63,265 bases of DNA from the NCBI GenBank assembly GCA_977020255.1, contig CDROCS010003202.1, positions 186,001 through 249,265 on the forward strand. Reading direction: 5' to 3'. How positions within the stretch are numbered: position 1 is the first letter of the stretch; the number at the start of each line of letters is the position of its first letter. The stretch is from Obrimoposthia wandeli. Taxonomy: Eukaryota. Positions 1 to 56,483 of this stretch are shown here, in pieces. A model generated the notes under the pieces. It searched no databases. It was not told the DNA's origin and saw nothing but the letters and a program-made list of their open reading frames with translations. The position numbers and the translations under genes are program-made.

Positions 1-317
1 GTAAGTGTGTGAATTTGTTGTGTATGTGTGCGGTTTGTGCATATGTGCACATTAATACCATGTGTCCATGGACATGTTGCCCACCGCAAAGTCTGAGATA
101 AGTATGCCATCCCCCTGTTGAGCCCGGCAGGGCGAAACCGGTTAAGCCGGTCGGGGATTGACACTAGAATTATCTTTAAAAATACCAAAGTGCATTATTT
201 CTTAATTGAAAAATATTTCCCTAATTAAGGAAATCTCTTAATTAAATTATTTCTTTTTAATCTTTAATTTTTCTTTTATTTAAAAATTGTATAAATATTT
301 CTAAAATATTCTCAACA
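1..317 (-). mobile_element. Right end of an LTR of the hammerhead-bearing Gypsy LTR family (cut by the window edge)
   Basis: Ends in CTCAACA at 317, like CCCAACA at 4533 and 8741. It shares the hammerhead and the downstream 'ccaaagtgca...tttccctaattaaggaaa' block with 8570-8650. Confidence 0.7.
109..158 (+). ncRNA. Type I hammerhead ribozyme (core variant CUGUUGA)
   Basis: ATCCCC-CTGTTGA-GCCC(GGCA)GGGC-GAAA-CCGG(TTAAG)CCGG-TC-GGGGAT. All three helices pair perfectly and the GUC cleavage site falls after C152. The core has A6 changed to U. Confidence 0.85.
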
Positions 318-939
318 TATTCAAGAATATAATAAAAAATTATAGGAAACAACAAATTCTTTTATGTTTCTTTAACAGTTTAATTTTTCTACCTAAAACC
401 CTTATTTCCTTTTTTTTATTAAATTTCTAAATATGATTAAAATCTAAATTTTATTTGTTTTTTTTGCAGTCTTAGACTAAGCTGAAATTTACGTATAAAA
501 ATTTATATATTATTTTCATCTTTCTCTAAAACTAAGTAAACGAAAAATTATTTACTCCCTAAATTATAACAGAATACATTTAAAAGTTATTAATATATAC
601 TATAGAAGATAGAAATAGCAACCCCAAAAACCCCATTATTCAGCTCCTATTTTAGCAATTTTTACAAGAAGTCTATACATATTTTTCTACAGATTAATGG
701 AATTTAAAACCACTGGAAATCATTATACATATATGGAATTTAGCAGATTGTTTGTTTTTTGAAATGAATACACTGCATTTTGATTACCGATATTACTACA
801 TTTGAAAGTAATTGTGCATATTTTTGAGTGAAGAAAGTTGTTTAATTAGATTCAACATGAAAGCTTTCCTCGAAATATTGCAGCCAGTACATAGCATTAA
901 AAACAATCCAAGGATTCAAACTGCAATATCTAGTGAACT

Positions 940-1258
940 GTGCCAGACAGTGACATGCCAGCATTGACAAGCCACTCTTGTTAAATAAAGAAGCAAATAG
1001 GGGGATATGTGTCTTTCAGAACAAAGTCATTTAACCCCCTCCCAATAAATCATGGTCTTTGTCCACAAATCAACGACTCGTGCTCTTTCTATTTTTCTAT
1101 TTTAATAACATGTTTTAATCTTACATGCCTTTTTATCTGAAGGTCCTATTGACATGCAGTATTCACTATAGGATAACCTTGACTCTTAACACTCATTATA
1201 AGTTACTTGATCCTCAGACCTTCGAAGCTCACACCTTCAAGGTTTAAAATGAACTTAA
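940..1258 (+). mobile_element. piggyBac-like terminal fragment, inverted homologue of 17510-17830
   Basis: Its reverse complement matches 17510-17830 (taagttcatt...accttgaagg...ggttatcctatagtga) and it ends at a TTAA. The partner copy adjoins a piggyBac-like transposase remnant. Confidence 0.5.
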
Positions 1259-1737
1259 ATAAATATTTTTTATTTGTTATTTATAAGTAGATAATATTAT
1301 TTAAATTATTCTTGCTTTGAGGATGCACGTAAGTTGCAAAAAGTTACAACTATTCATTATAACAACATTTGGTTAAATAGATCAATTTATAATTATATTT
1401 AAATATTTCAATGTATCTAGGTTATTATATATCATGTGTATTTTATTTAATTCGAAATTTTAAAATATTATCTATTGTTAAATAATGAAAAATAGATTTA
1501 CTGCATCGGTTGGGTTAAATGGTAGTTAAGAACTCCAAGTTTTATATAATCAAATATACACAAACTGTATTTTGTAAATTGGTACGAATTACAAATGGTA
1601 TTTGGTAGGTATAATATAGGCAAATTACATCTTTCTCTTTGTAATCAGTCATTTCCAATTATGTTTTCAGATTTTTTTGTTTGATTCTGGAAAGCAATAA
1701 TTATTCATAATTTGCAAAATATGCTGCCTTAGATGCT

Positions 1738-2560
1738 TCAGATAGTTGGGATCGCGATAGATCCAATTGTGTCAACATATTTTTTCCAGCTGATGATTAG
1801 CTCCCGAAAAGCCTTTTCAAAGAAACCATGATCACATTTATTGAAAAAATCACAAACATTGTTGATCAAATCATCTGTGCTGTCGAACTTAATGCCTCTC
1901 AAATGCTTCTTAAGATACCGGAACATGTAGAAGTCACTAGGTGCGAGGTCTGGGCGAGTGGTTAATTGTAATGATTCGGTGAATGATTCAGTAGAGAAAA
2001 GCCCATCTCCAGAATTGTCGGTCCTGTGAGGTTTGCTGTGTGCATTGGCGCATTATCCTGCATTAGCCATAAAGGTGTGTTTCGTGCTTTGCGCCTGTTC
2101 TGTCTAGTAGTTGTTACAAGATTACTGTAATATACTGCATTGATAGTGCTGCCTTTCTCAGTAAAATCTAGTTTTATAACACTCTTTGTGTCCCAAAATA
2201 CTGTCAGCATTGTTTCTTTTCGATGAATTATTCCTGATCTCATTTTGTTTGACGGCTTCTCATTTGGAAACTTCCATTCCTTGGATTCACGACGAGATTC
2301 GGGCAAGTACATAGAAAGAGTTTTTTCATCAGTTGTTACAATGTTACTTAGGAAACGGTCCCCCACTGTTCATAAAGTTGCAAATTTTCAACACAGCACT
2401 CCAATCGACGATTCATCATTTCGCCTGTCAAACACCTGGGCACAAATCTTGAACACAGTTTTCGAAAACTTATATCTTTCACCATTGTGTGAAGGCTTCC
2501 CACACTGATATTAAGACGAATGGACAGCATTTTAAAAGAGATTCTGCGTTCATTATTCAC
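1738..2560 (-). pseudogene. Mariner (DD34D-type) transposase, frameshifted
   Basis: Motifs 'KLCSRFVPRCLT', 'IVTTDEKT', 'MLTVFWD' and 'QDNAPMHTA' are present, and 'HSPDLAPSDFYMFRYLK' reads across a frameshift near 1960. Confidence 0.9.
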
Positions 2561-3283
2561 GATCTTAATTAATTTTTCCTTAACTTGATCTGGAATCTCT
2601 TTTGCGATCTCCCCGTTCTTTTATCATCAAACACAGAAGTGCGACCATTTTAAAATACTTGACATACGTTTTCACAGTAGCATAACATAAAGAATCACCA
2701 TTGTACATATATTGAAGCATTTTATTTATTTCAGTTGCGTTTAGTCCTTGCAAAACAAAAAACTTGATAACACTACACTTAATTTATCAAGTATTTGAAA
2801 ATGTTCCACTAAAAATATAAACAAAAATAACACATTAAAATAACGTATATAGTTATTACCTATATATAATTATGTAGTTATATGAAAAAATAAAGGATTG
2901 TATCTATCATTTTTCTATAGTAGGCTAGACTTATTAAATATACCACGTATATAATTACTTAAAGTAAAATTAATAAATTTTATTTTACTTTCTTTTGAAA
3001 GTATCAAATGAATTACGTAAAATGTTAAAAGTTGAAATTATAAAGATATTTTGATTAAATTTAATATTTTCAAAATCATATGAAATTTAAAGAAGAGTGT
3101 GATAAAGAGACTAATATTTACAGTTATAAGAGCAGAACGTAGTAGTTTTCTTTGTTAAAAAAACTATAATGTAATGAGTAGGTGGAGTAGGTCTTCTAAA
3201 AGCGTACATGTGAGTTTGGAGTATGCTTGTATGTAAAAATATATGTTAATAAAACTGGTAAAGAAGAAAACGAATTAGTATAT

Positions 3284-3736
3284 TAATCAAATAATTTCTG
3301 AAACGCTTCCGAAAATCAAATAATCTCTGAATTGTTTCCGTAAATCAAATAATTTTGGTTCAAATAATTTCTGAAACGCTTCTGTAAATCAAATAATATC
3401 TGAATTGTTTCCGTAAATCAAATAATTTTGGTTCAAATAATTTCTGAAACACTTCTGTAAATCAAATAATATCTGAATTGTTTCCGTAAATCAAATAATT
3501 TTGGTTCAAATAATTTCCGAAACACTTCGGTAAATCAAATAATATCTGAATTGTTTCCGTAAATCAAATAATTTTGGTTCAAATAATTTCTGAAACACTT
3601 CTGTAAATCAAATAATATCTGAATTGTTTCCGTAAATCAAATAATTTTGGTTCAAATAATTTCTGAAACACTTCTGTAAATCAAATAATATCTGAATTGT
3701 TTCCGTAAATCAAATAATTTTGGTTCAAATAATTTC
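3284..3736. repeat. 73-bp composite tandem repeat (about 6 units) within the LTR
   Basis: 'caaataatttc(t/c)' recurs at 3361, 3434, 3507, 3580, 3653 and 3726. Each unit is built from aatcaaataat sub-repeats. Confidence 0.95.
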
Positions 3737-4353
3737 TTTTAATTTTTGTTGAATCTTCTAAAATTTATTAGCACAAGAAAATAAATTATCCTTTATAAAT
3801 AGGTAATGTCAATATCCACACAAAACTGCAGTATGGTCTGGACTAGGTGTGTGATCACTGTCACCGACCGCACACACACACAACGAACCACAATCACCGC
3901 AGAAGAGACAGATGGATCCAGAAAAGGAGATCAGAGATCCATAGACAGGCAGCAGTTCAGGGCAAAATGAAAAAATCAGGACACCAGATTGCACACGGGC
4001 ATGTGCATGTGCAATTTGACTTTGGCAGCACTGATAGATTTAGGATGCGAAATCGACGGCTGATAGAACACACACACAGTCATAGATTCCAAATCAATAA
4101 CACAACACACAGACACCGTCTACACAGCATAAATGTCATTGGCAGTACTGCTGGCATTTTACAGAGATAGAGGGAGAAATGAGACCGCAATTCCCACTTA
4201 GATAACATCGACGGCGGCTGTTGTTGATGTTGTTGTTGGTAGAGGTATGATGCTGGCCGATGATGGGGAAGGAAGGTGGAAGAGGACCAAATCTGCTGGG
4301 AGGTCCGGAGAGCTGGGCGGAAAATTCACTGTGGTTAATCTTGTTATCAAGCC

Positions 4354-4406
4354 GCCTTCCTGATGAACCTGGCAAGACGAAACGGGACGTCCACCCCGTC
4401 GGAGGC
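4354..4406 (+). ncRNA. Type I hammerhead ribozyme with degenerate helix II
   Basis: GCCTTC-CTGATGA-ACCT(GGCA)AGAC-GAAA-CGGG(ACGTCCAC)CCCG-TC-GGAGGC. The core is intact and helices I and III pair, but helix II has two mismatches. Cleavage would fall after C4400. Confidence 0.75.
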
Positions 4407-4749
4407 TGACAAGTAAAACCTCCCTGACTGTGGGCACTTCAGTTAATGTCAATTTTAATTGACTAAAAATATTTATTAATTTTTATTAATTTTTTAATTA
4501 ATTAATGTATGCAATTAATTTTTTAACCCAACAATCCTATGGGGGTAAACAAAGTCAGACCTCTGACGTTTTTATAAACAAGAATAGAAAGAATGTCCCG
4601 TTTAGTACATAGCTGTCTAACGTGACTTTCACAAAAAATTACTCGAGTCTGTTAATGTAAAGATAAAAATTAAAACATTGATTTTACACTTTGCATCCAC
4701 AAGCAATAATACATTTAGTGAATGATGCATAGTAAAATATCTTACTAAT

Positions 4750-5943
4750 CTAAAGGTTGTCCTCAGAATCAAAGGAGCAAATGTCTACGACTTCAGGCAG
4801 GTTATTATTGGCAATGCAGGGGAGAGAGACCGTCAGTCCATATTCTTCTATAAGCTCTTGCTCTTTATGGAGGAAAATCTTTCGGGTCCATTGTGTGTCT
4901 ATGAGGCTAGAGTGGGTATTCTTTTGTATTTCCTTATTGAAATACCACAAAACCATTCGAGCAAGTCCAGCTTGTTCTCTACGGTTCATTTCTAATTGAA
5001 TAGTCTGTGTTGCTCCTAGATCGACCGTGTGCGAAAAATCGTTTTTCTGTAGTCCTAAAACTTTGAGATCGTTGGTTATTCCCGTCTCTACGAAAATATT
5101 GTCTCTTAGCAAGGATTGAAGGCGTTCTAACACTTCGACAGAATCAGGTTGGTTTCTTAACTTCCGTTCGTTAAGGCCCATTATTCTTGTCACATAATTC
5201 CTGATTCTGTCTCTGCTATTGCATTTTGTATCCAAAACGATCTGTCCGCTTCTATTCATTATAGTAATGCTGGCTAGGGTGGGTTGTTTATTCATCTTTA
5301 CTACCATTTCACAATCGACAAAAAATATTTGAGGATTGTTATGGATGATGTTCAAATGGCAGACTTGTACGGGATTAGGTCGCACATTTTGTTCTATGAA
5401 TAATATGTTATTTCCACCCGACAAAAGAATCATCAAATCGGGAGTTATTTGATGTCTCATCAACCGGTAAGAGTGGTTTTGCAGGAGAAGGACAGAGAAA
5501 TGTTTGCTTTTCTTGTGTTTTAAAAATCCACGGCCTTTTGCTACGTGAATCTTAATGTCCGTGCATGTAGGTAAGAATTTCATCAACTCAAACAGTCTTT
5601 GTTCTGTTGGCTTTTTGCTATTTTTGTTGAGAATTATGCTTTGTCTTGGGGTGTCTCTTAACTTGATGCTATTTGGAAGCTGGGTCTTATTGTCAAAAAT
5701 CTTTATTCCGTAATGTTTATGGAAATACCTTGTTCCAAACTGCCTTATTTTTCCATAAAGGAACTTAGCCATTTTTGCCATTTCTGGACGTTGTTCTGCT
5801 AACTGGACTAACTTCTCTCTCTTACCCTGCGGCACAACCTGCCAGTTCAAATGAAGATTCGTGCTTGTGGGTTCCATCTGTAGGGTATACAGATATAGTA
5901 AAAATAAAAGTTGATTTTTATATGCAAATATAAATATTGTCAA
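4750..5943 (-). CDS. Accessory protein with a C-terminal DEDDh 3'-5' exonuclease (REX4/ISG20-like)
   Basis: 397-aa ORF with 'FFVDCEMV' (ExoI), 'LASITIMNRSGQIVLDT', 'IRNYVTRIMGL', 'GITNDLKVL' (ExoII) and 'HSSLID' (ExoIII). Confidence 0.85.
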   Translation of the reverse strand: MTIFIFAYKNQLLFLLYLYTLQMEPTSTNLHLNWQVVPQGKREKLVQLAEQRPEMAKMAKFLYGKIRQFGTRYFHKHYGIKIFDNKTQLPNSIKLRDTPRQSIILNKNSKKPTEQRLFELMKFLPTCTDIKIHVAKGRGFLKHKKSKHFSVLLLQNHSYRLMRHQITPDLMILLSGGNNILFIEQNVRPNPVQVCHLNIIHNNPQIFFVDCEMVVKMNKQPTLASITIMNRSGQIVLDTKCNSRDRIRNYVTRIMGLNERKLRNQPDSVEVLERLQSLLRDNIFVETGITNDLKVLGLQKNDFSHTVDLGATQTIQLEMNRREQAGLARMVLWYFNKEIQKNTHSSLIDTQWTRKIFLHKEQELIEEYGLTVSLPCIANNNLPEVVDICSFDSEDNL

Positions 5944-6302
5944 ATGTCTATCAAATGAAATGTTCCTGTCAGTTTATTTGTCTCTTTTTGTTACTCAAAA
6001 GTCTGTAAATCATTTTAGTCTTTCATGTAACAAGCTCAATCAAACAGGTATATAAATAAGATATAATTTTTCATTCTTTAATACATATTCTTATTACTGG
6101 TGTTTTCAATATCAATATATACATACTTATATAAATATACTCATTTTTATCTATTCTTAATTTTATTATTACCACTTCAACTAAAGCTAATGAATATTAA
6201 TACCCATTCATAAACACATTTCCCTTCCAAAAACATGCCATAAGCTCAAACTCATTCTCAATTTTCTTTTATTTTATATTTTAATTTACTCACTGGATTT
6301 TA

Positions 6303-6611
6303 CTAATTTTCACACCCGGAATCATCACTTTCTCCCGGTTGAAATCCCATCAAACAATTAATTACTGATCTTAATGATACAAGAGAGTTTAATGCTTCTC
6401 TGAGTCGTCGTACTAATAATTCCTGATTTGTTTGGCTATGTTCTAATCTTTCAATTACAACGTCAAAAGCATTATTCATTCGTTCACATTCCATTTCCTT
6501 GTCTTTCAAATGCGATCTCAGATTTATATTTTCTATCAATAATTTATTTTCCCATTTCTTCTGTCTCTTATATCTTCTTCTATTATTTTGTACTATTTTT
6601 GAATTTCTCAT
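6303..6611 (-). CDS. Small basic/coiled-coil accessory ORF of unknown function
   Basis: 102-aa ORF with a basic N-terminus and a heptad-like helical stretch. It is co-oriented with the other element genes. Confidence 0.45.
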   Translation of the reverse strand: MRNSKIVQNNRRRYKRQKKWENKLLIENINLRSHLKDKEMECERMNNAFDVVIERLEHSQTNQELLVRRLREALNSLVSLRSVINCLMGFQPGESDDSGCEN

Positions 6612-7782
6612 TTTCTAGAATAAGTCTTAATAAGTCTTAAGTTCATTTTTATTATTTTCTATTTAAACTAAACACATACGCACTTTTCTTCATCTACATT
6701 ATAAATACTTTATTTTATGACTAGTTTTTATTTTAATATTTCATTTATGTATTTTCTATGACAATTTTATAAAGGTTTTTCTCTTTTCTGTTTACTATTC
6801 TCAATTATTATATTTATTGACACGTTAGATGAATTTGAAGAGCTAGGAATGATGGATGTCATAAATGGGCCAGGTGGTTCACAATACTTAGTCCGATAAT
6901 GATTCTTGAAAATTGTGTTATTTTTTACTTTAATGATCTTCCATGTTATTTTTATGATTAATGTGCAGGTTTCGATTATTATGATTGTTATAAAAAATTC
7001 CTTGTTATTTATATTTTTGAGTATTTTTGTTTACTAAAGTGTATTTTTAGACTTTCATTAAATGATTTATAGGGTATTGTTTCTGTTGTTTTTAATTTTT
7101 TGTTAATTGTTTTATTTTCTGTGATATTACTTTGATTTGTAATTTCATAAGTCTTTGTTGTGAAGGTTGTAGTATGTGGTATTTGTTTTATGGTTGTTTC
7201 TTTGATATATTTCCTAATTGTAATTACTGACCATTGGCCACAAAAAATCGTAGGTTGGTATAATTTGGATATTTTATTTCCTAAAATCCTTAAGTTTGTT
7301 AGATTTTTACAAGTCTCAAATTGTTGTCCCCATTGTCTATACATTATTGGTTTGTTAGTAATTACACATTCTCTATTATCCATAATTATTTTTTCTGGAT
7401 ATCTTATATTTTTTATAGTTATATTTGTTCTGATTTGTGATTTTTCTAATTGTTTTTCTGCGTCTTTCCAAAAATGAGCATTATGTCCTCTATATCTAAT
7501 TCTAATGAGGGTTTTATCAAAATTATCTATTTTAAGTTAAAATTCCCAATTTATCATGATTTGATGTTTTGTTATATATTTTGCTGTCGTTTTTAATAGT
7601 GAAGCTAAGTATAAGTGTTAAGTGGGGATTGATGTATAAAAACTGATTCCAATAATAATATATTCAATTCAAAATAAATATATGTTTTCCAACTCCAGTA
7701 TAGTTTTTACAATAATTTGAGATTGATCACAATTTTAATACAACAAAATAGTTTCTGTAATAATTTTATATTGATTACTATT

Positions 7783-7945
7783 TGTAATTGACAATAGTTT
7801 CTGTGGCAATTTGGATAATTTATTCAGATAAACCTGTAATTGACAATAATTTCTGTAGCAATTTGGATAATTTATTCAGACAAATCTGCAATTGACAATA
7901 GTTTCTGTGGCAATTTGGATAATTTATTCAGATAAACCTGTAATT
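7783..7945. repeat. 52-bp tandem repeat (about 3 units) inside the solo LTR
   Basis: 'tg(t/c)aatt' unit starts at 7783, 7835, 7887 and 7939. Confidence 0.9.
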
Positions 7946-8517
7946 TTTATGTATTGACGATGTTGAGATTCGTCTTTTCACTATTCTATTTATAGAATAG
8001 TTGATCCGGAAAATAGTCCATTGCGACCGGGGGTTGGAGAGAGGGAGAGAGAGAGATAGACAGATAATTCTGCTGGTAAAAATAGATGGCACACAACAGC
8101 AGAACAGTCGGCAATCTCGGCTCTGTACACACAACTACAGATGTAAGGCCGGAAAATATTGCCGCCTGTTTGGCTTCTGGGCAGAGAAATCCTGGACAAG
8201 TGGGAAATCTGGCTTACATATAATACATACACACCAAACAGAATGTGAGTGAGTGACTAGGGAGAGTGAGTGAGCAAGTGATTGAGTGAGTGAGTGAGTA
8301 GTGAGAGTGAGTGAGTTGAGTGAGTAGTGAGAGATGTATTTCATGTCTGCTGTGTGAGTGTGTGTGTGTTGAATTGTGCACTTGCGCACACCAACATCAC
8401 ATGTCGTCGATATTCGTCGGCACATGAAAGGGGGAATCTTTCCTTCTTTTCTCTGGCTTTTTATTATTGTTATCTCTGGCTTCGCGGAATCCACCGCGAA
8501 GTTAGAGATAACAAGCC

Positions 8518-8569
8518 ATCTCCCTGATGAGCCCGGCAGGGCGAAACGGGCTTTTTCCCCGTCGGAGAT
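8518..8569 (+). ncRNA. Type I hammerhead ribozyme, fully canonical
   Basis: ATCTCC-CTGATGA-GCCC(GGCA)GGGC-GAAA-CGGG(CTTTTTC)CCCG-TC-GGAGAT. It has the canonical CUGAUGA/GAAA/GUC core and three perfect helices, with cleavage after C8563. Confidence 0.95.
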
Positions 8570-9199
8570 TAACCACTCTAAACTAAAATGCCAAAGTGCA
8601 TATTTTATCTAAATAGAACTTTTCCCTAATTAAGGAAAGTTCTTAATTAATTCCTTAATTAATAAATTCTCATTTTTTAATTTTTATATATATATATATA
8701 TTTTTATTTTTTAAATAAATATTTATAAGATATTCCCAACATAAGTGAGTTTCTATAATTCTTTCATAGAGTGTTATATTCTTTAAATTCGACTTAACTC
8801 TTATTTTGTATTGTGTCTCTGTTCTTAAAAATGGTATTATATAATTTTTTGATTCGATTTTTGTAAATATTTATTATTTGATTTTTTTCAGATTGTATTA
8901 TTTGAATTCTTCCTAATTTTTTTGTAAAGAGGGATATTTTCAACTTTATTGATGTGATTTCAGGTATTATTGTAATAAGTCCAAAATTTTTTATGAGATG
9001 TGTTGATGAGTCGTATCTATTTATTTCGTCTTTTACTATTAATTGATTTTCATTCAGGTTTATAGCGTTTACTTTTATTAGGTTACTTTTTACTGCAACA
9101 TATATTACTAATAACATCATTATTTTACATATTTCTTTTATTGAGATTTTTATTATATTTCTAGTTTGATGACACAAAATAGTATTGTTTTGTTTTTGT

Positions 9200-12100
9200 G
9201 AGTTTTTTATAGTTAACATTTGTAAAACAGTATTATTGTTAGTTGATCTTAAATTATATTTGTGACTTTTTACTTTTGTATTTTTCTCAGGTATTTCTCG
9301 ACATCTGCTTATATGTGTTCTTATTTCTTTTGATTTTGGTTCATTATCTAGTTTAGCTGTTATGTTGGTTCCGTTGGTACTAATAACTGTATATGGTCCT
9401 TTGTATGGTTTTGATAATTTGTGTGATAATCCTACATTGATTTGTGGATTGTGAATCATTACTTTACTTCCGATTTTTATATTTGATGGCTTAGTTCTTC
9501 TATCATAATATTCTTTGTAATTTTCTTGTATGTTTTTTACAAATAATTTAGCTTTTTCGAATGCTAGTTTTATTCTTTCTCTTATTTCTATTTTGTATTC
9601 AGGTATTTCTAGGTACTGTGTAGTAGGTTGTAGTAATGTTAGGTCAATATGCATTTGAGGATCTCTGAGGAACATAAGGTAAAAAGGTGTTTCTCCTGTA
9701 GATGCATGTACTGATGTTCTATATGCAAAAGGGCATGGAGGTATATGTAAATCCCAATCTGTTTGGTTGTTGTTTGTGTATGATGCCATCATATCTTCGA
9801 GGGTTCTATTAAATCTTTCTACTAATCCGTCGGTTTGAGGGTGATATGGAGTTGTATTGATCTTTTTTATGTGAAAAGTTTCAGCTATTGACGCTAATAC
9901 ATTATCTATAAATTCAGGACCTTTGTCGGTTAATAATTTCCGGGGTGCACCGAAAGTAAAAATAATTTTTTCGACTAAAACCTTCGCGATGGTTTCAGCC
10001 TTATGATCATGTGTTGGAAAAGCCTCTGGCCATCTTGTAAAATAATCAGAAAATACTATTATATATCGATTTCCTCGGGTGTTTCAGGTAATGGCCCCAT
10101 TACATCCATGGCAACAGTTTCCATGGGGGCTGATGGATACGGTATTGGTTTTAAAGGTATTTTTGTGGTACGTAAAGTGTTTTTTTGTTTAAGACATATT
10201 TCACAAGTATTACACCAATTTTTTACATCTTCTTTCATATCAATCCAATAATATTTTAAGTTTAATCTCGAATGTGTCTTTTTTGTTGAAAGATGTCCTC
10301 CTAAAGCTCCGTTATGATATTGAAGGAGTAATTGGCCTTGTATTTCTTTAGGAATAACTAGTGAATACAGATTTTTATCGTTTAGATAATGTAAAATATT
10401 GTTACTGAATTTATAACGAGATTCATGAATTTTTAAATGTTTTCTTAATTTTTCATCTGTTGGAACTTGATTGATGGTGATGTACTTAATTATTTGTTGT
10501 ATTTCCGAATCTTTGCTTTGAAGATCGGTGATTACTGTTTCATCATATCGAGCTTTGATTATTGTAAAAAGATTTAATTCGATGTCATTGGAATTTATTA
10601 CATTTACTTCTTCTCTTATTCTAGATAGGCAATCTGCGTTGGCATTTGATTTACCTTTTCTATATTTAATTTCAATATCATATTTTTGTAAAATTAACGC
10701 CCATCTCATTAATCTAGATGTCGTATCTTTATGATTTAGTAGCCACTGTAATGGTCGTTGATCGGTATAGACGTGAACTTATCGACCTAATAAGTAATGT
10801 TTAAAATGTTCCATTGCGAAACAAATAGTGAGGCATTCTCTTTCTATAGTTGAATAATTTATTTCGTGTTTTTTAAGACCTCTGTTTGCGTAAGCTATCA
10901 CATGATCTTTTTCGTTATTATCTTGTTGTCCTAGTACTGCTCCTAACGCATAGCCACTTGCGTCAGTCATTACTAAAAATGAATTGTTGAAATTAGGATA
11001 TCTAAGTATAGGTTTTTCAATCAATTTTTGTTTAAGTACTCGTATGACTCTTGTTGTTCCGTTTCCCATTCAAACTTTTCATCCTTTTTAATAAGTTTAT
11101 TTAACGGTGTCGCTATTTGTGCGAAGTTTCTGATAAATCTACGATAATATCCTGCAAGTCCTAAAAATTCTTGTATATTTTTTACTGTTTTTGGGATCGG
11201 AAAATTCTTTAATTTTTCTATATTACTTTCATCTGGTTGAATTCATTTTGCAGACACTGCGTGACCTAGATAATTCACTTTGTCTTTCATCCATTCACAC
11301 CTTTTTGGTTTTAATTTTAAACCTGCTATTTTTAATCTAAGAAATACATTTTCTAAATCTTTTAAGTGTTCTTCAAAATTTTTTGAAAAAATAAGAATAT
11401 CGTCAATATAGACCATGACATGATCGGCGTCCATTAAAATGTGGCTCACGCATCTCTGAAATGTTGCTGGAGGACCTGTTAATCTAAAAGGTAAAACATT
11501 AAATTCGTATAATCCTTCTCCTGTTGAGAATACTGTTTTTTCTTTGTCTGATTCATCTATTTCTATCTGCCAATATCCACTTTGTAAATCTAAAGTTGTA
11601 AATATTTTTGCAATTTTTAATTTATCCAAGATTTCATCGATTCTTGGGAGCGGATATGTGTCTTTATGTGTAACCTCGTTTAATTTTCTGTAATCTACGC
11701 AAAATCTTAGTGAACCATCTTTCTTTTTTACTAAAACAACTGGAGATGTCCATGCTGAAAAACTTCTTCTTATGATTTTATTCTCTAACATTCCTTTTAC
11801 CTGTCTTTGAGCTTCTTCTCTGTAAGCGTATGGGATACGGTAAGGTCGTTGTTTAATTGCTGTATTAATAGTTAAAGGAAGGTTATGTTTAATTAAATCT
11901 GTTCGTCCAAGGTCATATTCATTTTTTGCAAAAATTACGTCATATTTTTCTATTAATGATTTTAGTTTTGATTTCTCATAATCATTTAATTTAATATTTT
12001 CAAATTTTACAGTGGAATTGTCTTCTATTTTTTCATTATTAATTAATTCTATATTTTCTATAACGCTTATTTTTCCAAGGCACATTCCTTCTTTTAGATG

Positions 12101-12490
12101 AATCTCGTTTATGTCTGCATTTAGTATTCTGATTGGTATTGTATTATTTTTTATTTTACAAATTATATTTGGTAGAACGTAATTTAGTGTTTCTTGTTGA
12201 TATTTATAAGGTTCGAATAATATGTCTTTTTCTGTAATTATGTTAGTTTCTAGTTGTAATATTGTTTCTGTTCTAGGTTGAAGGATGATGTCTCCTTTTA
12301 TTTCTAATTCGTATTCGCTTTTAGCGTTTGATCTGTAAATGTCTTTAATTTGATTTTTCTCGAAGTCAAAATGAAATTTTTTTCCTAATTTCCTTAATGT
12401 ATATATTCCAATTATCATCTGGCATGGACAATTTTTCATTATTCTAGTAGGTATTTTTATAAATTTATCTCCTATTTTAAAAATGCAATC
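9200..12490 (-). pseudogene. pol: Gypsy pol (C-terminal half of protease, RT, RNase H, integrase) with frameshifts and stops
   Basis: RT 'TLDLQSGYWQ' and 'YIDD'; RNase H 'VMTDASGYALGAVLGQ'; integrase zinc finger 'HNGALGGHLS...CNTCEIC' and 'VAMDVMGP'; GPY/F-like 'LSKPYKGPYTV'. Confidence 0.95.
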
Positions 12491-12507
12491 TAATTTACCA
12501 ATAATAT

Positions 12508-13530
12508 TTACGGGTTGACAAATTTTGTTGGTGTAGTTTTTGCATTATATATTTTTTCTTTACTTAAATATATTCCTTTATAATTAGTTGTATAAATAGA
12601 GTGTCCACATCGGGATTCCTCTTTCTTTTTAATAAATCGCATTCCAGAACCTTGTTCTGTTGACATTAGAATAGTTGGGGTTGATGTTTTTTGAATTTTT
12701 CTTGTCCTATATTTTTTATGTATATCTTTTGGCACTCTTTGATCAAGTTCCGGGTCATCTTTAAATTTTTGACCTTGAATTATTTGAAAATTTTCAGATT
12801 TAAGGAGTATTAATTTACATTGGTCTGTTTTTACCTTATAATATAAAATTGAGGATCCTGTATTGCAATGACTTATATTTGCTTCGCAAAATGGCATAGT
12901 TACCATATTATTTGTAGATGGGTCAAATGTTGCTTTGAACGTTCTTAGTTCTACTTCAAAGTTTTTTATAACTACTAAACCACTTTGTTTGACTCCCATC
13001 ACAACGTATGTGCCTGTTGTACATGTACCGTCAGATTTTATTGTTCCTATTACTGTAATCATTTGTTGTATAATTTTATTTTTTACTGCTCGTACTTTAA
13101 TTTCTCTATCTATTCTTAGTTCTCCTGTTGCAAAATCGTCCTTACAATTTAGTGCATCGACAATTATTGATATTTTTCCTAGTGCAGGTTTGACAATTGA
13201 GTTATGGCTGTGTTGTCCGCAATATGTTATGAATGTTTCTACGTGTACCCTACACTCGAAAATTTCTGTATTTAGGAAATCTGTTTCCTGGTATACATGG
13301 AATAACTTGGTGGTTTTGATTTTTACTTCGTTTGGGTCGGCATTAGCACATTGTTGCAAATCCATCAAGGAATATTTATTTTGAATACTATATTTTGAGC
13401 AATCATACGCTTCCAGGGCATTAACTGGTTTTATTATATTTGTAATTATATATATCGTAAATATTACTTGAATTATTTTCCATAAATTCTGGATGATTTT
13501 GTTGAAATTATAAGTATTTTTAAGAGTTGT
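12508..13530 (-). pseudogene. N-terminal half of a chuvirus-like / herpes gB-type (class III) fusion glycoprotein
   Basis: Signal-like 'LWKIIQVIFTIYIITNNIKPVNA' is followed by 'LEAYDCS...SLMDLQQC', 'ECRVHVETFITYCGQHSHNS', 'GTIKSDGTCTTGTY' and 'FCEANISHC'. This cysteine spacing is recalled from chuviral G proteins. The ORF is truncated at a junction into protease. Confidence 0.7.
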
Positions 13531-15200
13531 CTTTTTACTATTTTTTGGTGTTTTTTACTTTTTGATTTTGTATTTTGTGTTTGAGTAGTTTGATTTATTG
13601 TTTTACTTATTTGTGTTCTTTTTTCTAATGTTAGACAACCATTTCTAAATATATCTCTTAATTCCGATTGAGAGTTGGTACTATTTGTGTTTTGCTCATT
13701 GTTTTGGTATTGTTGATGTGTTTCTTTGTAGCGATTATCTATTTCTTGTTGTCTTAATCTCATCAATGTGACTTCTTCTGTTTCCTGAGTTATATCAGTG
13801 TTTTCAATAGTATGTATTGGGTTTCTGTAAGCATATTGTTGATTTTGATTGTTAAACTGTACTGTTTTTTGAATCTGTGGTTGTGGTTGTTGTTGTTGTT
13901 TTATTGTTGTGTTACCAAATTGGTTCATCATTGTATTTAGTTTGCTACATTCATCAGTATTGTGATTTTTCATATTACAAATTTTACAGAATTTTGTATT
14001 AGTATTAAAATATTTAGCTTGATTATTAAAATTATTAAAATTATTATATGGGCTTCTAAAATTACTATTTGCATTTTTGAAATTATTATTTGGATTATTA
14101 AAGTTATTATTTTGTGATCTTATATTATTACCTTGTCTGTATAACAATTTTCAGCAAGTTTCAATAGTATGATTGTCTTTTTTACAAAATCTACAAAATT
14201 TGTTTGTTATTTTATGACAATTTTCTATTGTGCGATTTTGCAGTCCACAATTTGTACATTTCTGGAAAGGTCTTTGTGTAATTTGTGAGTCTGTATAGTT
14301 TCTGTTTGTTTGATTTCTATAAAAGTTATTTGTCGGTGGTGTATATTGTTGTTTGTTTTGGTAATTAGATTGTGAGTTTGGGTTGTAGTTTTGAGTTTGA
14401 TTGAAATTTGGTGGTGTTGTTGGTCTTTGTATTTTTTCAAATGTTAATGCTGAAATTTCAGATTATTGTAACTTGTTTAATCTTGTTTCTACAAGTTGAG
14501 CTTTATTTACAGCCTGTTGAAAATTTTCTACTTCTAGTAGTGCTGGGTGATTTTTTATTTTATTGTTTAGCCCATATAGAAACTGATGTAGGAGTAAGCG
14601 TTCTCTTAAGACTTCCTCAATTCCGGGAAATGATTTTAAGGCTAATCTTCTTAATTCAACTGCAAAGATATTTGTGGGTTCTCCCATATGTTGTTCACGT
14701 TGCCTAAATTGGTTAAGGTAATTTTGTTCTGATTGTGCTCCTAAAATAATATTTTGAAAATTCTGGACCAAATGAACCCATGTGTCTTTCTGTTCATTAT
14801 TTAATCCTCTATAAATTGTTAAGGCAGTGCCCTTTAAATACGCCGGAAAAACCCTAAGTTTCTCTACATTAGTCCATTCAAATGCCTGAGCAAATGAATC
14901 AAATCTATTTAAAAATTCAGGTAGTGAAGATTTATCGCCATTGAAAGCGTCTAATGGAACATTTAACTTATGTTCAACCATTATTTGAGGTTGATTGATT
15001 ATTTGTTCGTTGTTTATTTGTACAATATGTGGTTCTGGTACGGCCACTGCTTCCGTTATCTCTGACGAACTATCCGAGTCAGATGTTTGTGGTGTAGGTA
15101 AACTCTCTGTATTTGAAGTTAATGTTAGGTTAAGATGTTCTGAGAGTGAGGAAGTCTGTGTAATTAATCGTTATTTGTTGTAAAACTGATTTGTGATTTG
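13473..15200 (-). pseudogene. gag: Gag (capsid domain plus zinc-knuckle-like motifs), frameshifted
   Basis: 'LDAFNGDKSSLPEFLNRFDSFAQAFEW' and 'FRQREQHMGEPTNIFAVELRRLA' match the Retrotrans_gag pattern. Knuckle-like 'CKICNMKNHNTDEC' is present, with a second near 14150-14200. Confidence 0.9.
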
Positions 15201-16639: not shown

Positions 16640-16657
16640 TCTTTGTCGAACTCACCA
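16640..16657 (-). promoter_or_regulatory. Primer-binding site (TGGTGAGTTCGAC...)
   Basis: On the minus strand, TGG starts 3 nt after the LTR end AACA. The same TGGTGAG junction recurs at 28680-28690. The cognate tRNA was not identified. Confidence 0.7.
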
Positions 16658-16660: not shown

Positions 16661-17509
16661 TGTTAATAAAACTGGTAAAAAAGAAAACGAATTAGTATAT
16701 TAATCAAATAATTTCTGAAACGCTTCTGTAAATCAAATAATCTCTGAATTGTTTCCGTAAATCAAATAATTTCTGAAACGCTTCTGTAAATCAAATAATA
16801 TCTGAATTGTTTCCGTAAATCAAATAATTTTGGTTCAAATAATTTCTGAAACGCTTCTGTAAATCAAATAATATCTGAATTGTTTCCGTAAATCAAATAA
16901 TTTTGGTTCAAATAATTTCTGAAACACTTCTGTAAATCAAATAATATCTGAATTGTTTCCGTAAATCAAATAATTTCTGAAACACTTCTGTAAATCAAAT
17001 AATATCTGAATTGTTTCAGTAAATCAAATAATTTTGGTTCAAATAATTTCTTTTAATTTTTGTTGAATCTTCTAAAATTTATTAGCACAAGAAAATAAAT
17101 TATCCTTTATAAATAGGTAATGTCAATATCCACACAAAACTGCAGTATGGTCTGGACTAGGTGTGTGATCACTGTCACCGACCGCACACACACACAACGA
17201 ACCACAATCACCGCAGAAGAGACAGATGGATCCAGAAAAGGAGATCAGAGATCCATAGACAGGCAGCAGTTCAGGGCAAAATGAAAAAATCAGGACACCA
17301 GATTGCACACGGGCATGTGCATGTGCAATTTGACTTTGGCAGCACTGATAGATTTAGGATGCGAAATCGACGGCTGATAGAACACACACAGTCATAGATT
17401 TCAAATCAATAACACAACACAATGTCATTGGCAGTACTGCTGGCATTTTACAGAGATAGAGGGAGAAACGAGACCGCAATTCCCACTTAGATAACATCGA
17501 CAGATAACA
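16661..17509 (-). repeat. 5' LTR, truncated (lacks the hammerhead-containing segment)
   Basis: Near-identical to 3244-4212 apart from tandem-array copy number and a short internal deletion. Homology stops at 17501. Confidence 0.85.
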
Positions 17510-18340
17510 TAAGTTCATTTAGGACCTTGAAGGCATTAGCTTTGAAAGTCTGAAGATCAGGAAAATTTATAGTGATGGTTCAGGGTCAGGGTTATCCTAT
17601 AGTGATAAATACATTTCAATCGACCGTCAGATTGAAAATATGTAATTTTGAAAATACGTTACTAAAAATAGAAGAACAAAGAACATGAGTCAAAAATTAT
17701 GTCATTAATGAATCATGGTCTTTGTTCTCTGATAACAAAGACTATGAGTCATCAATTTGAAAATAAATGCCACGATACATCGAAGAGAGAAGGGAAAATG
17801 TATTTGTTTCAAAAGACAAGTCTCCCCCTACTGACGCATACTTAAATCTGCTGCACATAAACCACATTTTTTGATTAAAATTAGAATTGAATCCAGCTTT
17901 TGTTCACTGGATTCTTGACACATTGGATTGGTATGTAGCGTTGAAATGAGTCATAAACTCTTTCTTGGCATTCCTTGATATTTTAAAAGTATATTTTTTT
18001 AATTGTATTGCAGAAGAATTTAGAGTTATTTCATTCATTTCGATTGAAAAACCCTTAGTATTATTACGTACAGTACGAACCATTGTTGTTTGTTTTGCTA
18101 GCAAATCTTTAGAAAAACCAATACTGTCAAAAAATTGTCACACCTTATATTTTTTGCCTTTCCTCTAAGCGGATACATAATTTTTTTCACAACTTGGTCG
18201 TCAAGGCTTTCTCTATTCTGCTTTGACGTTTTCAACCAGGATCCAAAATTTGAGGCCAAATTTGTCCGACTATTTAACCATATATTCAACAAATCTACAT
18301 CGTGCTTTCATTGGCATAAATTGCTTTACAACACATAGTG
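17510..18340 (-). pseudogene. piggyBac-like transposase remnant with its 3' terminal region
   Basis: 'VVKKIMYPLRGKAKNIRCDNF' and 'KQTTMVRTVRNN' resemble the PGBD 'GRNITxDNFFTS...TTLVGTxRxN' motifs. The terminal part matches 940-1258 in inverted orientation. Confidence 0.7.
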
Positions 18341-26000: not shown

Positions 26001-29000
26001 AACCGAGTAAGCTCGTAATTTTTCCCACAGTAACTTACTTTTTGAAATTTTCACAAAGATCTGTTGATAACAATTTTTAAATAAGCTGCCTTTAATCGAA
26101 AAGTGTCACATTATCGCCTATTTTTCTTCCACCTCTGATCGTTTCATGGCACACTGAATTATTCTCTGAATGACTTGATATGTGCCTATTTAACTTCCTG
26201 TAATAAAGAACTGGTCTAACCTTCGCTTTGTTTACCTACTCAACTGTCATTAATGGTGTCAACTCATCAAATTCTACGAGCCAACCGTTATCTATCCAAA
26301 TCTGAATTTCGACGATCCAGTTCCCTCTTTAACGTACGGTTTTATTCCATAATTACAAACCTTGATTCTAAGAATGGCTGGATCACAAATCCAATTCTAT
26401 TTAACATTCCATAAACTTCCATCGAACTTTGCACTAAAATCTGAATCATCTATTTCAAGATCTGACTTCCAAATGAAATAGTAACCTCATCTAGTTCATT
26501 TATTGTGTCCACTCCCAAAATAAAATCTAAACCAACGTGTAATGACTTCACTACTAGGCATTCCACTGCACACTCCCTGTAACCTATTTTAACGAATGTG
26601 CTAGGGATTTTATCACATCTAACTATACGACCATCTACACAATTTTTTTTTACATAGTAAAAATAAATGATGTCGACAAGAATCCCTTTTGTTCAACTTT
26701 CCAATATCTACTACTACAATTCCAAATATTTAAACTAATTATCACATATATTAAGAAGAATTCAAAATAAAATAATAACACGAAAATTAAAATAGTAAGT
26801 AGACGTTTAAATACAACTATAGTTGAAATATATATTTGGTTGATACAAACGATTTTGAATAAACTCGACAAAAGTATTTCATTTATTAACATAATCTCTA
26901 TCTGCATTAATAACGCTGCCATCGATTTTGGAGCTTATAAGTCCAATCTCTGTAAAACTGTTGTGACTATGAATCGAAGAAGTTGCAGAGTTTCATTCTA
27001 ATTGCTTCTCTATCACCAAATGCCTTCCCATCAAGATGACTGGAAAATATGGTAATCCGATGGTGTATTATCTGGTGAGTATGGTGAGTGCAGTAGTAAT
27101 TCCCAGCTCATCTCTAAATTTTTTTGGTGAGTATTTTTCTCCCTGTGTAGTGGATTATTCATGGAGATTTTTTTTTAAATTCCTAGTCATTTTTAGTTAA
27201 ATTCAGGACTTTGCAATTGATTACAATATATGTGTGAATTAATAGTTTTATTATTTTCAAACTATTCCCACTAGGATAATACCTTGTACATTCCACAAAA
27301 CACAACATATCTTTCATCTCGTGTAATGATATTTTGGTTCATCTTTAACTTACTGTTCACTGACATTTTTGTCTAATGTTAGCATGCAAAGCCCACTTTT
27401 TATCTTCAGTTAGTGTTGTGACTAACCAATCATTTCTACGCTTATATGATTATAAAGAAGTTAAAATATATAAACATCTAAATTTATATATAATGTGAGT
27501 TTCAAGGTACTAACTGTCCTAGTTGTGTGATCTATCCCGTAGGTGTCCTAATTCACGCATGGTTAGTCTAGGATTGGTGTGAATTGCTTCATATAGGAAG
27601 TCATTGTTTAGAACACTTGAATGACATAACCCGGGTTTATCATCACTTCCCACTGACGTTTCTGTCTAATGTTAGCATACAAAGCCCACTTTTTATCTTC
27701 AGTTAGTGTTGTGACTAACCAATCATTTCTACGCTTATATGATTATAAAGAAGTTGAAATATATAAACATCTAAATTTATATATTATGTGAGTTTATGAG
27801 GTACTACCTATCCTAGTTGTGTGATCTATCCCTTATGTGTCTCCTAAATCACGTATGGTTAGTTTAGGATTGGTGTCGACTGCTTCATATAGGAAGTCAT
27901 TGTTTAGAACACTTGAATGACATAACCGAAATTTATCATCAATACTCCAATCTCCAGATTTAAACTATGACCTAATTACGTACTGTTTACGAGATAATTA
28001 TAGCTTCATCAAATGTAAAATATTAATTACGTTGAGATTCCGCTGCTTTCGTACCCAAACAATATTCATAAAAAATACATATCCGAAAATGATCTCTAAA
28101 AAAATAATTTAACAAATATTTCAAAATATTTGAGTTTATTGATATAGTATTGATACAGAAAAATAAAACAGATAAACTCAAAACACCCTTCACCAATCCA
28201 TTATAATGCTTTTTTAAGATAGAAAAAGGGCTTATTAACCTGGATTTGACAATTTTTACAGAATTTAAAATATCAAATAATATATTTATATGTCAATAAG
28301 TTAGGGCAGTTGTGTATTGCACAATCACAATTGGTAAACAATCGACAAAACTGTTAAATCAAAAAACAAATTGTATTCTAAATAAAATTCCTGTAACACT
28401 CAGTATAGCAGAGTAATTGACAACTAATCTGTTCAAATTGTACAATCAAAAAACAAATATGAAAAATAAAAATATTGTATAAAATATATAACCTGTATGT
28501 TACTAATTTTTTAAAAAAATTACCTATTTCAAATAAGGTCTTATTGACAATCAAAAATATGTATTATTACGAAAAACCAATTCAAAAATCAAAATTTAGA
28601 AAATTCGAATTATCAAAAACTGTCAAATAAATAAATAAACGACCTGAATTTTTCTTTCCGTCTATGTTCCTTGGACGGGCTCACCAAATTGTTATAAATT
28701 GTTAAAATTCTCCGAGATTATTATTGAATTCCTGATAACTTGGTAATTATTCTAAATAAAGACTAGTGATACGTTTTTGTTTATTTATTTTGTGTGTCTG
28801 TTTTTGTGATTTGTTTTTTTTGGGTTTGTGTTAGTACTTTATTTTATGTTTCTAAAGAAATTAGTGAAAAATAGGAAATGTGTAATGCGTACGGAAATTT
28901 AAATAGATTTCGGTGATATTCGGAAAAATTATTTGGTCAATCTAAAAATCAAGTTCTCTTAGTAAAATCAAAAATACGTTCTCAAAAATTTTTTGGAGAA

Positions 29001-52877: not shown

Positions 52878-53037
52878 CGAAACACCACACCACACCACCG
52901 AAACACTCCACTCTCCGCCCGCTCCTTCGGGGCGGGCTTCATTCTTGATCTACAGGCACGAAAAACATCGGTCAGATCTATATAATTTAGAGGAGCAAAA
53001 ACAAAATACGAGACAAAATTATTTTTCAAAATATTTA

Positions 53038-53538
53038 TTAAACATAAAACAATATATTGGCTTCACTCAAAGTCCAGAGAGGCTGCATTTTCCCGTCATC
53101 AGCAAAATATCCATTCAGACGTATTGAGATATTCCATAGTTCTTCATCTAGAATTGGAGCAATCAAATATCCTAGATCATCTTTAAAATCCAGACTGGGA
53201 TCAGTTTCAAGCTCGAAACAATTTCCTTCATATACATAATCAGGAATGTAAAATCCCAAAATATTTTTCAGTTGATCAAAATCAGTTGTTAAAATTTCGA
53301 TGAGATATTTTTTCTCCACTTTTGATATTTTCACAGGATTCATAACTCGTATAATTTGATGCTTCTTTAATATATTACATAGCTTTCCTATTGAAATTCT
53401 CTCTGGATAATAAAAATTTGCTACACATCTCTTATCCATTCTAAAATAAGGAAACTGATTAAAAACAATGTTTATAAAAAATACACATAAGATACAAATA
53501 TTTAAAAAACAAAACTGATTATCAAATGAAAGAAACAT
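53038..53538 (-). CDS. Maverick accessory ORF of unknown function (paralogue of 53573-53944)
   Basis: Shares a C-terminal pattern with its neighbour: 'ISIRLNGY...MQPLWTLSEANILF' versus 'VTIRLYGY...KLPMWKIERAHISMF'. The start may be the Met of 'MDKRC'. Confidence 0.55.
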   Translation of the reverse strand: MFLSFDNQFCFLNICILCVFFINIVFNQFPYFRMDKRCVANFYYPERISIGKLCNILKKHQIIRVMNPVKISKVEKKYLIEILTTDFDQLKNILGFYIPDYVYEGNCFELETDPSLDFKDDLGYLIAPILDEELWNISIRLNGYFADDGKMQPLWTLSEANILFYV

Positions 53539-53572
53539 AGTAAAACCGATTACAATTTATTACACACAAAAG

Positions 53573-54048
53573 TTAAAACATAGAAATATGAGCACGTTCA
53601 ATTTTCCACATAGGCAACTTTGTTCCCATTTCATCTTTCTTGTAACCATAAAGTCGAATTGTTACAGTCCATTGCTTCTTTTTCGGAAACGCATCAATAT
53701 CAACATATCTTCCATAGTCATCTAGAAATGCTTCATCGGCTCCTCGGATATAAAATTCGTTCTTATTGAAAGTAAAATTCGGAACTGCCTTTTCTATTTT
53801 CTGTTTAAGATATTGAAAATCAGGTTTTTGAATACCTGATAGATAGTAGCTGAACTTTCTTCTTTCAATTGTCACAGGATTTACTAAAGCAATCAGTTGA
53901 GCCTTCTTCAAGAATCTGACTTTGTATTTGAAATATTGTTTCACTTCTTCTTACATATCCTTATCCGATTCTTCAAACATTTCTTCGTCATCGCTTAATA
54001 CCAGTTGGCTATCATCCATTGTTGATAATTGTCTTTGATATGAATGCA
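53573..54048 (-). CDS. Maverick accessory ORF of unknown function (one in-frame stop near 53950)
   Basis: 123-aa open frame at 53573-53944 with an acidic upstream extension from an ATG near 54048. Confidence 0.5.
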
Positions 54049-54265
54049 TTTACTGTGATTTGTCCTCCAATGGTGCATTCTTTTATACTAATTTCTAACA
54101 AATACATGAGTCTCATTGGTTAATATAACTAAAGCATTGAATTTGATTGGACTAAATATATCATCCAATTATAATAGGTTTGCAAGATAATTAAAAGAAA
54201 CGTGCAATAAAAAAGCAGGTTCAGACATATATAAAGAAGATTTTACAGAATACAATTTCAGTCTA

Positions 54266-54915: not shown

Positions 54916-54992
54916 ATTGATTTTAGAAAATATATCTTATTACATCTTGTTATCTTTTCTATTAACAAACCCGTTTAAACTTATTGTTTTGA

Positions 54993-55265: not shown

Positions 55266-55302
55266 TAATATAAACAATATTAAAAATGAAAGAGTATATG
55301 CA

Positions 55303-56455: not shown

Positions 56456-56483
56456 ACAATTATTTCTAAAATCAGCTAAAGAT

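Follow-up and report, generated by a model that had tools for sequence, protein, structure and literature searches.

An ISG20/REX4-like exonuclease gene between pol and the 3′ LTR of gypsy elements with a gB-type envelope gene

Organization of the element

The window analysed here, a 63,265-nucleotide stretch of Obrimoposthia wandeli contig CDROCS010003202.1 (GCA_977020255.1, positions 186,001 to 249,265), carries on its minus strand a retrotransposon of about 14 kb that runs from a truncated 5′ LTR (17501–16661) to a 3′ LTR (4533–3244). In the direction of the element, the LTR is followed by gag, a gB-type fusion glycoprotein, pol, a membrane-protein-like frame, a coiled ORF of 102 aa, a nuclease ORF and the second LTR. 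The LTRs, the gag gene and the order protease, reverse transcriptase (RT), RNase H and integrase are those of Ty3/gypsy elements. Compared with the 3′ LTR, the 5′ LTR (16661–17501) lacks the part that bears a hammerhead; 3 nt behind it lies a TGG stretch (16646–16657) that resembles a primer-binding site in sequence only. Gag (13476–15170) contains zinc knuckles and two in-frame stops. The glycoprotein, of the gB type of Monjiviricetes (12511–13554; PF24664, E = 7.6e-20), lies between gag and pol and is broken at the env-to-protease junction at 12519, beyond which other copies run on. Pol (9280–12544) encodes a protease without a start, RT, RNase H and integrase, and is interrupted by two stops and two frame changes. 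The membrane-protein-like frame (6770–9279) continues from the integrase and has hydrophobic stretches near both ends, but no Pfam match. It is disrupted by two frame changes and by a solo LTR of a related family (7616–8741) with a 4-bp target duplication, TAAG; the site is empty in other copies, where a joint between 7610 and 8741 skips 1130 positions. The coiled-coil-like ORF follows (6303–6611), with a TAG acceptor-like site upstream. The 3′ LTR (3244–4533) has TG…CA ends, the TGTTG start also found in the LTRs of two related loci described below (L001 and L002), and a 73-bp tandem repeat array near its 3′ end. Finally, positions 1–317 are the terminal part of a third LTR, related to the others, which carries a type I hammerhead in antisense orientation. 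Apart from this hammerhead, all of these features lie on the minus strand.

An earlier note on this DNA had described gag, pol and env as all broken, and the four in-frame stops, the frame changes, the junction at 12519 and the solo-LTR insertion bear this out. Outside the tandem array, the two LTRs differ by only two substitutions in 450 aligned positions. Near-identical LTRs flanking a broken interior suggest that this copy moved when it was already defective.

The accessory ORF

The nuclease ORF (4750–5877, minus strand) encodes a protein of 375 aa with a possibly cupin-like N-terminal domain and an ISG20/REX4-like DEDDh 3′–5′ exonuclease domain, as delineated by ORF scan, Pfam and structure comparison. 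The frame closes at the stop codon at 4750–4752 and its first ATG in the standard code is at 5877. The open frame that had been noted earlier is therefore there, but its length of 397 aa does not hold, since it counted 22 codons upstream of this ATG (5878–5943) and would require a bacterial-type TTG start at 5943, inside a splice-acceptor-like tract. These 66 nt comprise a pyrimidine tract with CAG as its last letters, directly abutting the ATG, and this CAG may be a splice acceptor. Both accessory ORFs of the window and both of the related locus L003 have a YAG that either abuts the ATG or lies 3 nt upstream of it; in L002, no AG immediately precedes the ATG of the ORF.

The earlier note had pointed out that this frame is intact although gag, pol and env are broken. 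Given eight breaks (counted by eye) over the 7,386 nt of coding sequence elsewhere in the element, an open frame of 1,128 nt has a chance probability of about 0.29, and other frames of 348, 433 and 429 codons survive open in env and pol. The intactness of the window ORF therefore says nothing about selection. Its private differences from nearly all aligned contigs alter the amino acid in five of the five cases listed (from the best 40 of 1,559 difference rows), an outcome with a probability of 0.32 under neutrality. The window protein also deviates at positions 264 and 221, where G and P (G264 and P221), respectively, are each conserved in 33 of the 35 rows of the clade described below. From its sequence, this copy of the ORF may be impaired or decaying.

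The nuclease domain

The DEDDh domain spans about residues 183–345 (4843–5331, minus strand; residues are counted from the ATG at 5877) and is recognized by Pfam as RNase_T (PF00929, E = 2.2e-08, above the cut-off). The D-x-E, D and H-x4-D motifs of DEDDh enzymes are present on an RNase H-like fold as Asp188, Glu190, Asp270, His322 and Asp327, so that the full catalytic set reported by the earlier note is confirmed. No zinc-finger pattern was seen by eye in the domain.

A structure model was built with an alignment of 11 sequences (mean pLDDT of 78, pTM of 0.73), and the VIA-align match lists for the models are taken up by the nuclease part. The closest structures include ISG20, ISG20L2, Pan2 and SDN1. 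The best match is ISG20 (Z = 21.9, rmsd 2.0 over 161 residues), and the Z-scores fall through Pan2 (18.3), SDN1 (15.6), ERI1 (14.1) and RNase D (11.3) to the nucleoprotein (NP) of the arenavirus LCMV (10.2). In a search with the family profile, ISG20L2 (E = 6e-31), ISG20 and SDN1 come out on top. By both sequence and structure, the nuclease belongs to the ISG20/REX4/SDN1-like group; in these model comparisons ERI1 is a weaker match than ISG20. A DEDDy nuclease of the RNase D type was rejected, the motif being of the His type and RNase D scoring far below ISG20. The analogy once drawn with viral enzymes that destroy dsRNA fits poorly, considering the distance of the arenavirus NP compared with ISG20 and the fact that SDN1 requires a single-stranded 3′ overhang, as described in PMC6123492.

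The same source reports that SDN1 trims Argonaute-bound small RNAs and that Arg185 of SDN1 and Arg53 of ISG20 contact the 2′ and 3′ hydroxyls of the terminal ribose. The R185A substitution reduces SDN1 activity, and the enzyme is less active on 2′-O-methylated ends because Arg185 binds the ribose hydroxyls (PMC6123492). The accessible text of PMC12630145 holds nothing on end requirements. In the window protein, the residue aligned with this arginine is Val229. The ribose-reading arginine is found in none of the 35 clade rows, compared with 90 of the 116 other, cellular-like rows, and the methionine after the first acidic pair is replaced by phenylalanine in 26 of the 35 clade rows, compared with nine of the 116 others. 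With the arginine lost and Met changed to Phe, end recognition would therefore be altered. The loss of the arginine is compatible with a shift towards methylated RNA ends, cyclic phosphate or DNA, or simply with a lower activity; the clade nuclease probably takes other ends than cellular REX4 and ISG20 do, namely modified RNA ends or DNA.

The N-terminal barrel

The part of the protein that precedes the nuclease had been described as an unrecognized half of about 200 aa. It measures about 180 aa, and the model places in it a β-barrel (about residues 55–165; 5383–5715, minus strand) with conserved Pro68, His111, Gly115, Ser136 and Glu162 and a net basic character. Residues 78–165 form eight strands, with pLDDT values mostly of 84–94. 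A Foldseek search with the whole model, which gave no query ranges, returned several cupins (E = 1.5e-04 to 8e-04, TM-score by target of up to 0.54). We assign these matches to the N-terminal part, which thus acquires cupin-like matches but, on the model, can be called a cupin-like barrel only weakly: 28 sequences yielded no Pfam match to a cupin family, and the ESM Atlas gave no usable match when queried with the N-terminal part of either the window protein or P0007, a homolog from the profile search.

Metal cupins and AlkB-type dioxygenases bind their metal through HxH..E / H or HxD..H ligands. The only conserved potential ligands of the N-terminal domain are a His, present in 25 of 27 rows, and a Glu, present in 21 of them, and neither HxH nor HxD occurs in it. 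A metal site of the cupin or AlkB kind therefore appears unlikely from the sequences, and both a metal-binding cupin and an AlkB-like dioxygenase were discarded as assignments for want of these motifs. The median net charge of the domain is +8.

A family of accessory nucleases

A full HMMER scan yielded 655 matches at E ≤ 0.001, of which the 150 listed are considered here. In a tree of the nuclease domain with 151 rows (155 found, four cluster mates dropped), 35 rows form a clade made up of 32 of these 150 matches and the ORFs of the window, L002 and L003 (FastTree support of 0.88–0.90). An IQ-TREE of 60 hand-chosen rows (26 from the clade and 34 others) also keeps 26 of 26 together (96/88), with the bootstrap unsettled, and it should be noted that long branches can group falsely in such trees. 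The clade is separate from the cellular-like rows, in a tree whose deep forks are unsettled and from which ISG20, PAN2 and ERI1 sequences are absent; the window protein stands apart from these rows, among which is a named flatworm REX4 (P0005). None of the 18 clade members looked up bears an informative name.

The N-terminal domain accompanies the nuclease in 29 of the 35 clade rows, the other six having 0–24 residues before the nuclease. Outside the clade its best score is 6.7 bits, with the exception of P0154, a cluster mate of P0007. The window sequence scores 39 bits when it is itself excluded from the profile and 20.5 bits when its two closest relatives are excluded as well. The catalytic set D-E-(D/E)-H-D is kept in 29 of the 30 complete rows (five partial rows were set aside).

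Scanning of metagenomes confirmed three loci, L001–L003, among 360 pattern matches. In L003, a single uninterrupted frame that extends over at least 3,212 aa encodes gB, protease, RT, RNase H, integrase and a membrane tail; downstream of it come the nuclease ORF and a short helical ORF, to which the 102-aa coiled ORF of the window has no detected similarity. As in the window (PF24664), the gB-type env of L003 lies upstream of pol (PF24664, E = 1.4e-95), and the two elements are 34% identical in gB, 54% in the RT region and 49% in the integrase. Downstream of the ORF, L001 and L002 have a polypurine tract and then the start of an LTR, TGTTG, as in the window LTRs. The genomic context is available for four of the 35 clade rows, and pol is visible in L003 and the window only. 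Homologs with the same N-terminal domain and the same place in other elements show identities of 18–30%.

Among L001–L003, the nuclease domains are 57–61% identical, with pN of 0.23–0.28 and saturated pS of 0.78–0.82, and the N-terminal domains are 27–44% identical. The earlier note had named the lack of the ORF in relatives, which would make it a one-off capture, and neutral evolution as outcomes that would speak against its proposal. Instead, relatives carry the ORF (32 of the 150 listed matches, and L001–L003), and the near-invariant catalytic set together with a pN far below the saturated pS points to a nuclease that is under purifying selection between families. The ORF is thus an old, lineage-specific accessory gene, located between pol and the 3′ LTR, of gypsy elements with gag, gB-type env and pol.

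Word-based homolog searches returned nothing with the single window protein and only P0014 with the alignment; no longer fused form of P0007 was met in such a search, which is weak evidence. No relative turned up in the viral contigs scanned. O. wandeli sequencing runs (four runs of one sample) point to many copies of the ORF: 19–42 contigs cover each listed ORF site, and the summed depth on the ORF is about 20,000 in run X1, compared with 7–22 for unique flank contigs; neither figure gives a copy number. Gag, gB and pol all reach a higher summed depth than the ORF, although depth is unsuited to ranking genes.

Hammerheads in the LTRs

Three type I hammerheads lie on the plus strand of the window, antisense to gag–pol. 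The one in the 3′ LTR (4354–4406) has its cut site after C4400 and is 134 nt from the sense 5′ end of the LTR; only two of the four pairs of its stem II are formed, and it has no Rfam match at E ≤ 5. The one in the solo LTR (8518–8569) has three stems and an intact core and matches RF00163 (Hammerhead_1) with 32.4 bits (E = 5.2e-05), compared with a gathering score of 34, a score that no match within the window reaches. The third (109–158), identified by its core and stem pattern, has one core substitution, which is missing from nearly all of the aligned depth. The latter two lie 179 and 166 nt, respectively, from the sense 5′ end of their LTRs. Free-energy folding gives no support to the three hammerheads (z-scores of 0.14, −0.93 and −1.06), and the calls rest on the core and stem pattern and on Rfam. 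A 24-nt hammerhead pattern in four GC-rich viral contigs was dismissed as unrelated, as these have no pol similarity.

The ribozyme next to the ORF is antisense, as noted earlier, and lies within the 3′ LTR; it is damaged in the window copy. The further proposal that nuclease and hammerhead form a module is not upheld by the relatives: neither of the two with a visible 3′ LTR start, L001 and L002, has a hammerhead on either strand of the first 537 and 719 nt of these partial LTRs. Since both have the nuclease and no hammerhead in the LTR part seen, the two features look separable at the sequence level.

Comparison with known systems

That DEDD nucleases are carried by rotifer retroelements is a valid precedent: the Juno and Vesta LTR retrotransposons and the Terminons of bdelloid rotifers have a DEDDy ORF3 (Rodriguez et al., 2017, PMC5408684). 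As in the window, a separate exonuclease ORF of the DEDD family lies behind pol, with intact catalytic residues and a predicted function, and the DEDD-to-DEED change known in the rotifer ORFs is likewise seen in 13 of the 35 rows of the clade. However, the rotifer ORFs are described there as DEDDy, RNase D-like and in place of env, whereas the window ORF is DEDDh, ISG20/REX4-like, has a cupin-like head and belongs to an element that also has a gB-type env. Because the rotifer nuclease is of the DEDDy/RNase D type, that of the window was captured separately, which makes it the second DEDD nuclease to have been acquired independently by LTR elements.

The closest likeness in gene order and env class is with the GAG-ENV-POL ‘ancient errantiviruses’, which have an HSV/gB-type env and are reported in flatworms, nematodes and bryozoans (Chary & Hayashi, 2026, PMC13524379). 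By eye, and not by computation, the gB piece of the window is collinear with six Schmidtea Platyhelminthes_C1a rows, with all eight cysteines. The accessory nuclease and the LTR hammerhead, in contrast, are absent from the description in PMC13524379 as far as it is accessible: the main text has ‘nuclease’ in one reference title only and no ‘ribozyme’, and none of its seven supplementary files contains an entry for an exonuclease, DEDD, REX4 or cupin. Burro elements, too, are reported to have their env between gag and pol (PMC6431247).

The nuclease shares its fold and catalytic motifs with cellular ISG20, ISG20L2, REX4, SDN1 and PAN2, as reflected in the ISG20 and ISG20L2 scores given above, yet none of the cellular-like rows has a β-barrel head, and the window clade is separate from them and has lost the ribose-reading arginine. 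Arenavirus NP and the ExoN of nidovirus nsp14 are comparable as DEDDh nucleases hijacked by parasites for immune evasion or proofreading (PMC7968707), but the LCMV NP is structurally far and the window nuclease lies outside any nucleoprotein or replicase.

Hammerheads in terminal repeats are documented for plant LTR retrozymes and for animal non-LTR retrozymes and Penelope-like elements (PMC7229834; 10.64898/2026.07.22.740005), and those of the window are of type I, the usual type in animals. In these sources, however, animal type I hammerheads sit in short tandem repeats or Penelope-like elements, and those in LTRs are of type III, in non-coding plant elements, whereas the window has type I hammerheads in true TG…CA LTRs of a gag–env–pol element, antisense to pol. 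An LTR retrozyme, which is short and non-coding with a type III hammerhead, was accordingly rejected for this coding element of about 14 kb.

In the open literature, we found no gypsy element described as carrying a DEDDh or cupin–DEDDh gene, and no coding animal element described as having type I hammerheads in its LTRs; subscription papers, Repbase or bioRxiv supplements may contain either. The nuclease gene is real, conserved and apparently undescribed in this form, and the locus adds type I hammerheads in the true LTRs of a coding animal element.

Possible roles

We favour, tentatively and with slightly less than even confidence, an accessory counter-defence 3′–5′ exonuclease. The ORF would be made from a spliced subgenomic RNA, and its basic, non-catalytic barrel may hold a substrate or partner, like the additional domains of SDN1. 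The nuclease would take off single-stranded 3′ ends, either by trimming small silencing RNAs or by clearing element-derived ssRNA or cDNA that would alert the host. The antisense LTR hammerhead would be a separate device at the level of subfamilies, cutting antisense read-through transcripts shortly before they enter the coding region; nuclease and ribozyme may have a common purpose without being one obligatory unit. A counter-silencing role is plausible. A role as silencing suppressors has been proposed for retrotransposon-borne helicases (PMC6338049). A narrower version, in which the remodelled pocket (arginine lost, Met to Phe) serves to trim the 2′-O-methylated 3′ ends of piRNAs or siRNAs, the cupin-like head targets the enzyme to the piRNA pathway and the antisense hammerhead adds a second layer in some subfamilies, seems to us unlikely.

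A helper function in replication is possible, if rather doubtful. The enzyme would trim the 3′ ends of genomic RNA, primer tRNA or cDNA, or proofread reverse transcription in the manner of nidovirus ExoN, and so support long elements. The elements are indeed long (about 14 kb in the window, and a frame of more than 3,200 aa in L003), ExoN is linked to genome size (PMC7968707), Rodriguez et al. propose 3′-end processing for the rotifer DEDDy ORFs (PMC5408684) and the loss of the arginine could admit DNA substrates. Yet the nuclease is a separate ORF outside the packaged Pol polyprotein, its nearest structures are RNA-processing and not proofreading enzymes, and most gypsy elements replicate without a nuclease; no exonuclease is mentioned for the 30-kb Burro elements in the accessible text of PMC6431247. 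The kinship with ISG20 and ISG20L2, the closest solved relatives, would suit an attack on host, viral or other retroelement RNAs, like that of antiviral ISG20, in order to manipulate the host or exclude competitors, and PML-like DEDDh enzymes are reported to restrict retrotransposons (PMC10123124). The RNA of the element itself would then need protecting, by a mechanism of which we see no trace, and we consider such a role distinctly unlikely.

An obligatory unit in which the nuclease degrades the fragments that the ribozyme releases from antisense RNA is suggested by their distance of about 350 nt, by the similar position of an antisense type I hammerhead in all three LTR families of the window and by the abundance of hammerhead-bearing LTR parts in the runs, and the loss of the hydroxyl-reading arginine could permit cyclic-phosphate ends. 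We nevertheless regard it as quite improbable: both ORF-bearing relatives that could be checked lack the hammerhead in the partial LTRs seen, the hammerhead adjoining the ORF is damaged in the window copy, and hammerheads leave a 2′,3′-cyclic phosphate (PMC8782182), whereas this enzyme class reads a 3′-OH (PMC6123492). Least credible of all is a one-off neutral capture of a host REX4-like gene. In its favour, the intactness of the window copy is no more than chance would allow, and the private changes listed for it have a neutral appearance; but homologs at 18–30% identity keep the same extra domain, place and catalytic set, the window protein falls outside the cellular-like rows, the flatworm REX4 among them, and a one-off event is largely refuted by L001–L003.

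To our knowledge, few transposon-encoded countermeasures against small-RNA silencing in animals have been shown. Here, a single family of small soluble enzymes has dozens of divergent members, the 3′ ends that they accept are directly testable at the bench, and the changed pocket makes a sharp prediction about these ends. If the elements are the flatworm errantiviruses that they resemble, such a test could be made in a planarian, where RNAi works; planarian LTR elements are reported to be piRNA targets (PMC8532177).

Antisense hammerheads and architecture of the LTRs

Each of the three distinct LTR families in the window carries an antisense type I hammerhead motif (positions 109–158, 4354–4406 and 8518–8569), and the distance from the hammerhead to the LTR end is alike across the three families. 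The novelty of these antisense hammerheads may exceed that of the accessory DEDDh nuclease. Tandem arrays of 73 bp and 52 bp units are also found (3285–3737, 16702–17051 and 7747–7945); they occupy the same end in two LTR families, and the number of units differs between the two LTRs of the element.

A normal polypurine tract is absent before the 3′ LTR (4534–4620, minus strand). Its place, filled by AAAA..GGG in L001 and L002, two metagenome loci with relatives of the nuclease ORF, is taken here by a run of C residues and a short palindrome; a CGGGAC motif upstream of this position is common to the window and both loci. In sequencing run X1, the summed contig depth is very low (81–238) over the LTR stretches at 3001–4200 and 16801–17400, whereas the hammerhead-bearing part of the LTR and the interior of the element show high depth. 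The low-depth part is possibly a rare LTR variant joined to a common interior.

Membrane-type modules and a possible pseudonuclease

In L003, a related metagenome locus, positions 1–9639 form a single open frame of at least 3212 amino acids that includes gB. By eye, this frame apparently contains three protease-type motifs, with an internal signal/transmembrane module ahead of pol and a second membrane module behind the integrase. A second membrane-protein-like frame, fused behind the integrase, lies in the window at 6770–9279; it matches no Pfam family and does not resemble the tail of L003. Within the nuclease clade, one member, P0014, has lost all five catalytic residues while retaining both domains and a long tail; it is a possible pseudonuclease.

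Surroundings of the element

The entire retroelement is flanked by an inverted repeat pair (1075–1257 and 17510–17691, 76%), one arm of which adjoins the truncated 5′ LTR. A piece of mariner transposase lies at 1962–2312. The 5′ leader region of the element has a second copy, 77% identical, at 28680–29660, which carries a similar primer-binding-like site adjoining a TGTT start. Farther along are a PPPDE-peptidase-like ORF (37639–38226; weak Pfam match), exons of a host Rab3 GTPase-activating protein catalytic subunit (45877–46916) and a broken Polinton/adintovirus-like stretch (53000–63000), with pieces of a protein-primed DNA polymerase B, ATPase-like, integrase-like and adenovirus pX-like sequences, and a TBP-domain ORF.
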